From a virus (taxonomy: Duplodnaviria > Heunggongvirae > Uroviricota > Caudoviricetes): a stretch of DNA of 64,000 nucleotides. Shown here one piece after another: positions 14,527 to 15,876 of the stretch. Every line of letters begins with the position of its first letter. Within the stretch, counting starts at the first letter, position 1. The stretch is from the IMG/VR virus record IMGVR_UViG_2690316311_000019. One strand, given 5' to 3'. Below the pieces are notes generated by a model. The model did not search any database and was not told the DNA's origin. It worked only from the letters and a program-made list of their open reading frames with translations. A program made the translations under genes and the position numbers.

Positions 14527-14722
14527 AATAATAAATTAATTAGTACATATGCGCCATTTGATATAGCGCACATTAACATCGGGAGAATAATCGTGTCATC
14601 CAAGGCTAATTATGAATCGCTGGCATCGATCATGCCGCGTAATGAACAGGAAACAGATGCTGTAGTGGACCCTGTAATCGCTGAAATGAATGCTCGCCTG
14701 GAGGCTGAATTTGCAGCTGAGA

Positions 14723-15352
14723 ATGAACATACCACGCAGGGCGACTAGGACTGTTTTTTGTGTCGGTAGCGGTCCGTCACTCACTCGTGAGGACTGTGCT
14801 GCTATAGAAAAAACTGGCTGTTCAATCATCGCGGTTAACAATTCCTGGCAGATGTTCGATGACATTTATGCCTTATACGCCGGTGATTTGTCATGGTGGA
14901 AGCAATACGGATCCACCATACCGGGAGGGAGATTCCGCAAAGTGACAGCCAACCTGGCGGCGGCGAAATCATTTTCGTTGGAGTACAGGCGATATTGTGG
15001 ACCGGCTGAAGGGGTTAATAGCGGCGCGCAGGCTATCAGTCTGGCGGCTGAATCAGGGGCTGAAGTAGTTGTATTAGTCGGCTATGACTGTTCTCTGCAA
15101 AACGGCCTTCATTGGCATGGAGCACACCCTCAAGCACTACGGAATCCAACGCAGGTGTCTATTTCAAAATGGCAACAGCAGTTCCTGGATACCCGCAAAA
15201 AACACGCAGATTTACATATTTTGAATGCAAGTAGGAGCAGTGCAATTCAATGTTTCCCAAGAATAAATTTAGAGGCAGTGATCGCGTTATTATCGTCGGC
15301 AGTGGCCCAAGCGCCGCAAACTTTGTTGCGCCGCGCGGAGTGCCGATTATAG
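14723..15352 (+). CDS. Hypothetical protein, paralog 1 (VxxVGSGPS N-terminal motif)
   Basis: N-terminus aligns with downstream paralog; start uncertain (14690 or 14723). Confidence 0.5.
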   Translation: MNIPRRATRTVFCVGSGPSLTREDCAAIEKTGCSIIAVNNSWQMFDDIYALYAGDLSWWKQYGSTIPGGRFRKVTANLAAAKSFSLEYRRYCGPAEGVNSGAQAISLAAESGAEVVVLVGYDCSLQNGLHWHGAHPQALRNPTQVSISKWQQQFLDTRKKHADLHILNASRSSAIQCFPRINLEAVIALLSSAVAQAPQTLLRRAECRL

Positions 15353-15876
15353 CGGTCAATGGGGCCATCGACTGGCTTAACCGCGCTTCTTATTTTTTCA
15401 CCCTTGATCCATCGCCAGACAATATGCGGCGCGTTGGTCGTGGCCGCCGTCGCCGTGGTGTTTGTTATTGCATGGCACTACCCGATGTTAAAGAACGTGA
15501 AGTCAGAGACGGCGTTCTGTGCTTCCGTCGTGTGGCTGAACGAGGCACGGAGCCAAAAAATACTAACTCTCCAGAGTGGTGGGCATGGCGCTGGTCCGCA
15601 CATTTCGGCCTTTGCGAAGATGAGAATGAAATTGCCAGCGGCAATAGTGCATATGGTGCTCTGAACCTGGCTTTCCATATCGGATTCAAACATGTAGCCC
15701 TGGTGGGTGTTGACGCTACGCAAGAACCACGCGTTCACTCCGGCGGCACGCCAAAAAATCTAAGTCACCTGCCTTTGTTATTCCAGTCTGCGCGTGAACA
15801 GATTGACGTTGTTTCATGCGGGAAAATGGGAAGTATTCCGCAGATGACTCTTAAAGAATGGCTGAAGAATACATGA
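15250..15876 (+). CDS. Hypothetical protein, paralog 2 (VIIVGSGPS motif)
   Basis: Tandem paralog of previous gene. Confidence 0.5.

Follow-up and report, generated by a model that had tools for sequence, protein, structure and literature searches.

What do the two consecutive, overlapping genes of about 200 codons that follow a 51-codon ORF in this phage DNA encode, and are they, as their related VGSGPS motifs suggest, diverged copies of one gene? The window, by which we mean the whole 64-kb stretch analysed, is P1-like phage DNA with 98.4% identity to P1, and the coordinates of its ORFs match the GenBank annotation of P1 pmgN, pmgO and pmgP. The gene pair is the long-annotated P1 genes pmgO and pmgP, and the 51-codon ORF is pmgN; pmgO and pmgP are known genes that represent uncharacterised subfamilies of a known superfamily.

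Organisation of the pmgN-pmgO-pmgP region

The gene order of the operon in P1 is pmgN-pmgO-pmgP-ppp-pmgQ. A predicted sigma-70 promoter, PpmgN (14494–14520, plus strand; positions carried over from the P1 GenBank annotation), has the hexamers TTGAAC (−35; 14494–14499) and TATGCT (−10; 14515–14520) in the window. Also upstream of the operon, on the minus strand, lies the homologue of the C1-repressor operator Oppp/Op83 annotated in P1 (14533–14549); its sequence, AAATTAATTAGTACATA, differs from that of P1 at 2 of the 17 positions, and this copy is presumably under C1 control. The first gene, pmgN (14593–14748, plus strand; phrog_2350 in PHROG, E=1e-37), has a GTG start preceded by GGGAG (14581–14585) with a 7-nt spacer, and the annotated start of pmgO gives the two genes a 59-nt overlap. 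A well-placed ribosome-binding site and an overlap with the following start were what the preliminary description had reported for this ORF.

Both larger genes are on the plus strand with an annotated ATG start, and both carry the shared motif described previously. pmgO (14690–15352; 220 aa) encodes a predicted glycosyltransferase of the MptE-like/DUF115 superfamily (Maf/WaaZ-like), the translation of which includes TRTVFCVGSGPSLTRE, and pmgP (15250–15876; 208 aa), with AGGAG (15233–15237) 12 nt 5′ of its ATG, encodes a diverged paralog assigned to the same superfamily. The overlap between them, earlier put at about 100 nt, is a dual-coding segment of 103 nt (15250–15352, plus strand), where the reading frame of pmgP is −1 with respect to that of pmgO. 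It shows zero nucleotide differences between the window and P1; elsewhere the corresponding overlap is 70 nt (a Salmonella P1-like element), 40 nt (Chimaeribacter) or 4–11 nt (distant loci). We also considered a programmed −1 frameshift that would yield an O-P fusion, as a slippery A_AAT_TTA occurs at 15265, but this heptamer is missing in the Salmonella P1-like relative. By our own estimate its chance expectation is ~13% of overlaps this long, and the frameshift reading was dropped.

The earlier caution about the true starts proved justified, and the start of pmgO is genuinely ambiguous. Three candidates are plausible: the annotated ATG at 14690, which has a poor Shine-Dalgarno sequence; a TTG at 14711, located 6 nt 3′ of GGAGG (14700–14704); and an ATG at 14723, the candidate nearest to the start of the homologues. 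All three precede the conserved core, whose first residues are around T19–C24.

Paralogy, fold and superfamily of PmgO and PmgP

The preliminary description took the two genes for a tandem paralog pair and named pairwise alignment as the test that might refute this. By that measure, similarity was confined to 36 residues in the motif region (BLASTP, E=0.003), and because nothing beyond this region was found, plain BLASTP is insufficient on its own for paralogy. Alignment of the PmgO family with the PmgP family by hhalign, in contrast, covered 162 columns (PmgO 18–201, PmgP 9–202) with a probability of 97.3% and E=2.1e-11, and the AlphaFold models of the two proteins have an identical fold and identical top structural neighbours. 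At the level of profiles and models, PmgO and PmgP are thus confirmed as true paralogs over their full length, and an ancient tandem duplication is the best explanation of their origin.

Both proteins probably belong to the MptE-like/DUF115 superfamily (PF01973). The P1 proteins themselves scored 23.7 and 21.0 bits, below the gathering threshold of 34.6, and at E≤1 the model matched 24 of the 25 PmgO-family members (best 3e-8) and all 25 PmgP-family members (best 9e-7). A natural O-P fusion protein, P0051, reached 44.6 bits, and precomputed PF01973 matches are present on many other homologues. The Rossmann-like alpha/beta fold of the superfamily, its G-x-G-P-S loop behind strand 1 and its N-S-G...G-x-D motif are all present in PmgO and PmgP. 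In PmgO, the C-V-G-S-G-P-S loop (residues 24–30; 14759–14779, plus strand) follows strand E21–25 of the model, and its residues C24, G28, P29 and S30 are invariant among 25 homologues. This loop is a predicted nucleotide/phosphate-binding element, a role suggested by the motifs of Cst-II and Maf and, for WaaZ, also by an alignment. The V-G-S-G-P-S loop of PmgP (residues 16–21; 15295–15312, plus strand) comes after model strand E12–16, with G19 and P20 nearly invariant. Along with this loop, the A-V-N, the Asp after strand 3, the N-S-G/A and the G-x-D are invariant or nearly so in both families. The regions after G-x-D differ, PmgO having H-W-H-G-x-H versus a single invariant His within NLSHLP in PmgP. 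Each model consists of a single domain.

A Maf glycosyltransferase was the best structural match of both models, with only ~160 residues of the 632-residue chain of Magnetospirillum Maf (PDB 5mu5) aligning to PmgO and PmgP. Maf proteins are ~600 aa long, with flanking domains for flagellin recognition, whereas PmgO and PmgP are bare catalytic domains. Maf proteins are encoded in flagellin glycosylation islands beside genes for CMP-Pse/Leg synthesis, whereas pmgO and pmgP are phage genes that lack donor-synthesis genes in their vicinity, and the pmgO/pmgP loci examined showed no genes for nonulosonic-acid synthesis. What surrounds the pair in these loci are phage genes for structural proteins, lysis or DNA metabolism, or genes for GT8 enzymes, methyltransferases or Big_1 adhesins. 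Unlike Maf, PmgO and PmgP form a diverged pair accompanied by a GT8 enzyme.

WaaZ (RfaZ; CAZy GT73), the Kdo-III transferase of the LPS inner core of E. coli and Salmonella, is the one superfamily member from enterobacteria that has been characterised. It shares with PmgO and PmgP the motifs SGP(T)S, AVNG, L-T-D and A-I-Q-I-A...G-L-D, and its donor, CMP-Kdo, is supplied by every Gram-negative host. WaaZ homologues match PF01973 and PF27901, the latter also giving a ‘faint’ precomputed match on P0051. Alignments of the WaaZ profile were marginal and restricted to the C-terminal half, for PmgO (probability 39%, E=3e-4, 83 columns) as well as for PmgP (69.6%, E=4e-5, 76 columns); weak as they are, they are correctly registered. 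WaaZ is a chromosomal protein of 283 aa encoded in the waa operon, whereas PmgO and PmgP are separate families found in phages.

The label ‘alpha-2,3-sialyltransferase’ carried by PmgO in RefSeq and PHROG derives from the GT42 enzymes Cst-I and Cst-II of Campylobacter. Sialyltransferase Pfam families did not match the PmgO and PmgP families even at E≤1, and E. coli K-12, a laboratory host of P1, is not known to make CMP-sialic acid; for these reasons the label, judged from sequence, is an over-annotation.

Searches of the PDB with the PmgO and PmgP family profiles returned no relevant match, and no transmembrane segments were found in the module proteins. NCBIfam and PADLOC gave no match for PmgN, PmgO, PmgP, PmgQ or PmgM, so there is no sign of a defence or anti-defence family among them. 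The PmgO profile recovered ~3,500 cluster representatives at E≤1e-10; the PmgP profile, scanned against viral contigs, found near-identical P1 copies only and added no diversity. Our literature search found nothing functional on pmgO/pmgP, on phage DUF115/MptE-like proteins or on Maf in phages. Literature matches to ‘DUF115’ are in fact to DUF1156.

A conserved module with pmgQ

Downstream of pmgP are ppp (15858–16550, plus strand), encoding a lambda-type Ser/Thr phosphatase (Metallophos match, E=1e-15), and pmgQ (16547–17248, plus strand), encoding a GT8/glycogenin-like retaining GT-A glycosyltransferase with DLDT, GDQ and FHGxPRPW motifs. The features of GT8 enzymes present in PmgQ are the DxD, the GT-A core, the C-terminal H-x-x-G-x-x-K/R-P-W and a profile match to a GT8 structure; D79 and D81 of the DLDT are invariant, as is the H208/P211/R212 motif. 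The PmgQ profile matched Gat1 best in the PDB (6mw5, E=5.5e-7), followed by the GT8 structure 5gvv (1.7e-4) and glycogenin (~3e-4), and the Pfam model PF01501 barely touched the protein. An assignment of PmgQ as a Waa-type LPS GT8 enzyme was rejected: PmgQ resembles WaaJ (E=2e-3) and WaaO (E=5e-3) of E. coli only weakly, and not beyond the DxD region.

Homologues of pmgO, pmgP and pmgQ occur together in most of the sufficiently flanked phage and prophage loci examined, in Proteobacteria and Bacteroidota, the taxa with the triad being Enterobacterales, Zhongshania, Commensalibacter, Brevundimonas, Sinomicrobium, Pseudomonas, Alloalcanivorax and Citrobacter. PmgQ accompanies PmgP in all sufficiently flanked loci. 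One Gemmatimonadota locus has pmgP and pmgQ alone, and a search for PmgO in the PmgP-PmgQ loci L014, L017 and L020 did not find it. In every non-P1 locus, ppp is missing between the pmgP and pmgQ homologues, and phage D6 has ppp with no O, P or Q gene nearby; ppp is a P1-lineage-specific insertion into what is a conserved, co-inherited three-enzyme module of many temperate phages.

The module often has SAM methyltransferases, some of them FkbM-type, or further GT-A enzymes next to it. Besides the single natural PmgO-PmgP fusion, there are several O-O tandem fusions, a fusion of PmgO to a TylF-type sugar O-methyltransferase and a PmgO-Big_1 fusion. The module is inserted at different places (behind the capsid gene, behind TerL, between lysis genes and terminase, next to RNR genes), and genomic context therefore does not point to an acceptor. 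For P1, an Ig-like Big_1 acceptor was rejected: with an HMM made from the repeats of the adhesins, neither the 64-kb window nor the prophage loci gave a Big_1 match, and the Big_1 link is therefore restricted to enterobacterial chromosomal islands.

Proposed function and alternatives

From the homology, the fold, the conservation of the module, the fusions and the solubility observed here, we propose that PmgO and PmgP are two soluble, single-domain enzymes of ~200 aa in the glycosyltransferase branch of the MptE-like/DUF115 superfamily, a branch that comprises the Maf flagellin nonulosonic-acid transferases and WaaZ and has a GT42/GT29 sialyltransferase-like fold. Their V-G-S-G-P-S loop after strand 1 would bind the donor nucleotide, and each protein, presumably catalytically competent, probably transfers a CMP-activated ulosonic acid. 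The donor is probably CMP-Kdo, the only such donor in E. coli K-12, a choice that we base entirely on the metabolism of the host and on precedents in the superfamily. As each paralog conserves its own set of residues, the two likely differ in linkage or acceptor specificity, and they probably work as a complex. Together with PmgQ, which would use a UDP-hexose donor, they may assemble a short glycan, for which the candidate acceptors are a phage protein (of the virion or otherwise), the LPS inner core of the host (the receptor structure of P1) and Ig-like surface proteins. This account, of two CMP-ulosonic-acid transferases that build a short glycan with PmgQ, has in our judgement a slightly better than even chance of being correct as a whole. 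The more specific version, in which a portable module uses host CMP-Kdo and UDP-hexose to glycosylate a protein (a virion component, or Big_1 adhesins in chromosomal islands), we regard as rather unlikely. Were the acceptor a virion protein, virion glycosylation in mycobacteriophages, whose glycosyltransferase genes are inferred to modify capsid and tail proteins, would be a possible functional analogue. Those sets are likewise phage-encoded, dispensable and composed of several glycosyltransferases (with methyltransferases in some of the O/P/Q loci), sometimes in or near structural genes; they differ from P1 in their enzyme families and in their hosts (Actinobacteria).

In a rival reading, PmgO and PmgP are ATP-dependent pyrophosphokinases such as archaeal MptE (6-hydroxymethyl-7,8-dihydropterin pyrophosphokinase, PDB 8sd5) or the thiamine pyrophosphokinases (TPKs), whose chemistry is ATP diphosphoryl transfer; during infection they would then diphosphorylate a small molecule, for example a pterin, a vitamin or a signal that resembles a nucleotide. 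Structural models that place both proteins closest to Maf argue against this reading, as does the consistent linkage to GT-A glycosyltransferases and sugar-type methyltransferases, including one methyltransferase fusion, a linkage that MptE and the TPKs do not have. Moreover, no folate, methanopterin or thiamine gene neighbours were seen in any locus examined, and the extra substrate-binding domain of TPKs, a beta-sandwich, is missing from both single-domain models. We consider a pyrophosphokinase function improbable, slightly more so than a division of labour in which one paralog is catalytic and the other a pseudoenzyme for acceptor recognition or for stabilisation of an obligate heterodimer. 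The co-inheritance of the pair across phyla, their fusion (once as O-P, several times as O-O) and their unlike post-G-x-D regions would suit such a pseudoenzyme. In both families, however, every superfamily motif is invariant or nearly so, and the three loci with PmgP and PmgQ in which PmgO was not detectable indicate that PmgP, at least, can work without it; a pseudoenzyme therefore appears doubtful to us.

A role as virion structural or assembly factors, ‘putative morphogenetic function’, is suggested by the gene names, by their place in P1, where tail/baseplate genes lie on one side and pmgR/pmgS on the other, and by homologues within the head gene cluster of several HK97-like prophages. 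Against it, P1 plated normally under CRISPRi knockdown of pmgO, pmgP or pmgQ, and the three genes are listed as nonessential in the Gonzales deletion survey, as cited in a table of the CRISPRi paper; this dispensability is consistent with an accessory enzyme module. Neither PmgO nor PmgP is mentioned in the searched text of the P1 virion proteome paper, the related phage D6 has neither gene beside ppp, and both proteins have a predicted enzyme fold with conserved motifs resembling an active site. We judge a morphogenetic role very improbable. As for the favoured glycosyltransferase reading, the papers examined contained no report of P1 virion glycosylation or of a P1-caused change in LPS.

P1 is a workhorse model phage, and its pmgN-pmgO-pmgP-ppp-pmgQ operon has been labelled only ‘putative morphogenetic function’ since 2004, with a misleading sialyltransferase label in RefSeq. 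For this hitherto anonymous gene pair there is now a concrete hypothesis that can be tested cheaply, in a phage that is easy to work with. With LPS as the acceptor, the module would modify the phage receptor from within the cytoplasm; with a protein as the acceptor, it would represent a new type of protein glycosylation encoded by phages and, as a Kdo-type system, the first pathway of a classical coliphage for glycosylating virions or proteins. In either case, the identity of the acceptor would annotate thousands of prophage genes.

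The operon and its start sites

The 3.4 kb surrounding the overlapping pair (14690-15876) was 98.4% identical to bacteriophage P1 (NC_005856 78802-82202), and the same region matched P7, RCS47, SJ46 and other P1-like phage-plasmids. The three ORFs of the preliminary description, with the motif and overlap of the pair, were all found where it had placed them and are annotated genes in P1 records: pmgN (14593-14748, the upstream 51-codon ORF), pmgO (14690-15352) and pmgP (15250-15876). They lie on the plus strand, as do the downstream ppp (15858-16550), encoding a lambda-type Ser/Thr phosphatase, and pmgQ (16547-17248). 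The interval of the pair contained 19 nucleotide differences from P1, none of them inside the overlap; tblastn identities to P1 were 99.5% for PmgO and 98.6% for PmgP, corresponding to four residue changes across both proteins.

P1 records place a sigma-70 promoter and the C1-repressor operator Oppp/Op83 upstream of the operon. The operator homologue in the window (14533-14549, minus strand) differs from P1 at two positions, and 14545-14572, in the same pmgM-pmgN intergenic DNA, accounts for 9 of the 13 differences from P1 in 14527-14800. This intergenic DNA is far more diverged than the coding DNA on either side. Because the operator region has diverged, the operon copy in the window may be regulated differently from that of P1. 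The neighbouring pmgM (13948-14526) gave a VRR-NUC match slightly below the Pfam threshold (21.2 bits) and a PHROG sub-hit to 'Holliday junction resolvase', and its product is predicted to be a VRR-NUC-type nuclease rather than a morphogenetic protein. A typing error made in the pmgM note of the P1 GenBank record has passed into NCBI and UniRef product names, so that hundreds of PmgO and PmgP homologues from many genera are called 'norphogenetic protein', a name without functional information.

The doubt raised earlier about the pmgO start proved justified. The annotated start, ATG 14690, is preceded by a poor Shine-Dalgarno sequence and lies within pmgN, which itself has a strong ribosome-binding site (GGGAG, 7-nt spacer, GTG). 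Two further candidates are in frame: TTG 14711, 6 nt downstream of GGAGG, and ATG 14723, which is nearest to the start position of the homologues. These are mostly 180-205 residues long and begin 2-12 residues ahead of the invariant Cys24; the Chimaeribacter homologue begins 6 residues ahead of this Cys, with no overlap with the upstream gene. In the 220-residue PmgO model, residues 1-10 were of low confidence.

The overlap of pmgO and pmgP is real: pmgP runs in the -1 frame and shares 103 nt with pmgO. The overlap is shorter in a Salmonella P1-like element (70 nt), in Chimaeribacter (40 nt) and in distant loci (4-11 nt). Its great length is a peculiarity of the P1 lineage, and it arose by extension of the non-conserved PmgO tail (residues ~203-220, pLDDT ~60). 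Within it, the conserved C-F-P-R-x-x-L-E of PmgO faces the unconserved PmgP N-terminus, and the GSGPS loop of PmgP faces the unconserved PmgO tail. The overlap also contains a slippery heptamer in the pmgO frame (A_AAT_TTA, of the form X_XXY_YYZ, 15265-15271), where a -1 slip would join PmgO to PmgP much as in the natural fusion P0051. We rejected programmed frameshifting: the heptamer is missing from the Salmonella P1-like relative, and chance could account for it.

Fold and family of PmgO and PmgP

AlphaFold models of PmgO and PmgP had common structural neighbours, with values of 14.2 and 12.8, respectively, for the Maf glycosyltransferase 5mu5, 11.4 and 11.9 for M. jannaschii MptE/HPPK 8sd5, 10.8 and 10.5 for the Cst-I alpha-2,3-sialyltransferase 2p56, and 10.9 and 8.9 for M. 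tuberculosis SteA 9hmy; eukaryotic GT29 sialyltransferases and thiamine pyrophosphokinases followed. The two therefore share one fold and are true, ancient paralogs, related well beyond the V-G-S-G-P-S motif found in both about 15-25 residues from the N-terminus. The P1 proteins match Pfam PF01973 (MptE-like, formerly DUF115) below threshold; 24 of 25 and 25 of 25 members of the two families match it, and no other family recurs. The label 'alpha-2,3-sialyltransferase' given to PmgO by RefSeq and PHROG stems from resemblance in fold alone, and as a specific function it is unsupported.

WaaZ of E. coli, classed in GT73 ('bacterial KDO transferases'), adds a third Kdo to the LPS inner core, an addition coupled to outer-core truncation. 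It carries PF01973 and PF27901 (WaaZ_KDO_III) with motifs as in PmgO and PmgP, and the superfamily thus has a CMP-Kdo-using transferase in P1's own host. The C-terminal halves of both proteins aligned in register with the WaaZ profile, PmgP at a probability of 69.6% (E=4e-5) and PmgO at 39% (E=3e-4); the resemblance is weak and does not amount to family membership.

A module with PmgQ

A PmgP profile recovered 18 loci from one-genome-per-species contigs, to which we added contigs encoding diverse homologues. By tblastn and blastp, every sufficiently flanked locus encoded PmgP and PmgQ homologues together, and most of these also encoded PmgO. The taxa with the full triad included Enterobacterales, Zhongshania, Commensalibacter, Brevundimonas, Sinomicrobium (Bacteroidota), Pseudomonas, Alloalcanivorax and Citrobacter rodentium; PmgO was not detectable by these searches in the Methylophilaceae, Buttiauxella and Longimicrobiales (Gemmatimonadota) loci with PmgP and PmgQ. 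Gene order varied (O-P-Q, O-Q-P, P-x-Q-O), which argues that selection acts on co-occurrence rather than on synteny. The insertion of ppp between pmgP and pmgQ was confined to the P1 lineage; elsewhere, neighbouring positions held a SAM methyltransferase (Methyltransf_11/23/25 or FkbM type) or a further GT-A glycosyltransferase. In the P1 relative D6 (L110, 76544-84171), ppp is 89.6% identical but has entirely different surroundings, made up of small lambdoid-type genes, and pmgO, pmgP and pmgQ are absent nearby; ppp and the module are therefore independent cargo.

The settings are late-transcribed regions without a single fixed site. In HK97-like prophages (L013, L014, L102 and the P0409 contig) the module lies in the head block, after TerL-portal-protease-capsid and before the connectors; in lambdoid and other prophages (L103, L108, L101) it lies between lysis cassette and terminase, in L015 and L018 after TerL or Mu-F, and in a Bacteroidota phage (L019) beside ribonucleotide reductase genes. 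Separately, the three genes are interleaved with inverse-autotransporter/Big_1 proteins (Ig-like) in Pseudescherichia (L106, 2241-15359), Serratia plymuthica (L107, 2674-11102) and a metagenomic enterobacterial contig (L111, 1343-11598), the latter two with holin and lysozyme remnants. These could be dedicated islands for adhesin glycosylation (or holin/endolysin-type secretion). Big_1 was not found in the P1 window or the prophage loci, and the association is therefore lineage-specific.

A PmgO-family profile search over 1.84 billion representatives returned 6,924 proteins at E<=1e-3 and 3,516 at E<=1e-10. The longer ones included a natural PmgO-PmgP fusion (P0051, 376 residues; C-terminal half against the PmgP profile, E=1.6e-83), four O-O tandem fusions in the representative library (P0305, P0324, P0344, P0377), a fusion to Methyltransf_24/TylF and a PmgO::Big_1::Big_13 fusion (P0312, 556 residues). 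The O-P and O-O fusions point to two such domains acting next to each other, and the several O-O cases to pairing being general in the PmgO family. TylF-type enzymes O-methylate sugars, and the methyltransferase fusion supports glycan chemistry.

Proposed activity and its alternatives

Beyond the observed homology, fold, motifs, co-inheritance, fusions and solubility (no hydrophobic segment was found), we propose that PmgO and PmgP would be CMP-ulosonic-acid transferases, with the donor nucleotide bound by the GSGPS loop as it is in Cst-II, Maf and WaaZ. In enterobacteria the donor would be CMP-Kdo, which all Gram-negative hosts can supply and which is the sole nucleotide sugar of this kind in E. 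coli K-12. The 18 genome loci all came from diderm phyla, in searches whose patterns were biased to proteobacterial sequences. PmgQ, with the motifs DLDT, GDQ and F-H-G-x-P-R-P-W, would attach a hexose, and in other phages the product would be further modified by methyltransferases. The PmgQ profile matched the Skp1-glycan galactosyltransferase Gat1 (E=5.5e-7), the GT8-family enzyme 5gvv (1.7e-4) and glycogenin (~3e-4), whereas similarity to the LPS GT8 enzymes WaaJ and WaaO was only marginal. In favour of a protein acceptor are the resemblance to Maf, the presence of protein-directed GT8 enzymes (Gat1, glycogenin) among the solved structures nearest to PmgQ, the placement in head gene clusters and the adhesin islands. 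The LPS inner core is favoured by the WaaZ precedent, the Gram-negative distribution and the P1 receptor, which is the LPS core.

Overall, we consider a glycosyltransferase module somewhat better than an even bet. A heterodimer of one catalytic and one pseudoenzyme partner is unlikely. Both families keep the superfamily motifs (strand 1 with G-S-G-P-S, strand 2 with A-V-N, an Asp after strand 3, N-S-G/A...L-A and G-x-D) and each has invariants of its own (W69-W70 and G-Y-D-C-S...H-W-H-G-x-H in PmgO; S-P-E-W-W-x-W-R-W and N-L-S-H-L-P in PmgP), which argues that both are functional yet diverged in specificity. That the pair are pyrophosphokinases is slightly less probable still. A structural 'morphogenetic' role is very improbable: pmgO, pmgP and pmgQ are dispensable for plaque formation. 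Their plating efficiencies under CRISPRi were 1.1, 0.72 and 1.4, and the CRISPRi paper cites the Gonzales deletion survey for their being nonessential; that survey gives 24 of 29 single-gene knockouts without a plaquing defect or antirestriction change. The CRISPRi paper lists pmgN as essential in its own screen (plating efficiency 1.4e-2) but nonessential by deletion, and all operon genes downstream of it as nonessential. The pmgN CRISPRi target lies directly downstream of the C1 operator and promoter.

The genes have long been known and carry annotations, and the fold is already hinted at in databases; in the searchable literature we found no report of the full-length paralogy, of the module and its breadth, or of the fusions and the WaaZ/CMP-Kdo connection. 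PmgO and PmgP are a new, uncharacterised subfamily pair in a known enzyme superfamily and not a new kind of system. Though ordinary in kind, the finding offers a precise and testable hypothesis about an operon that is still unexplained in a model phage.
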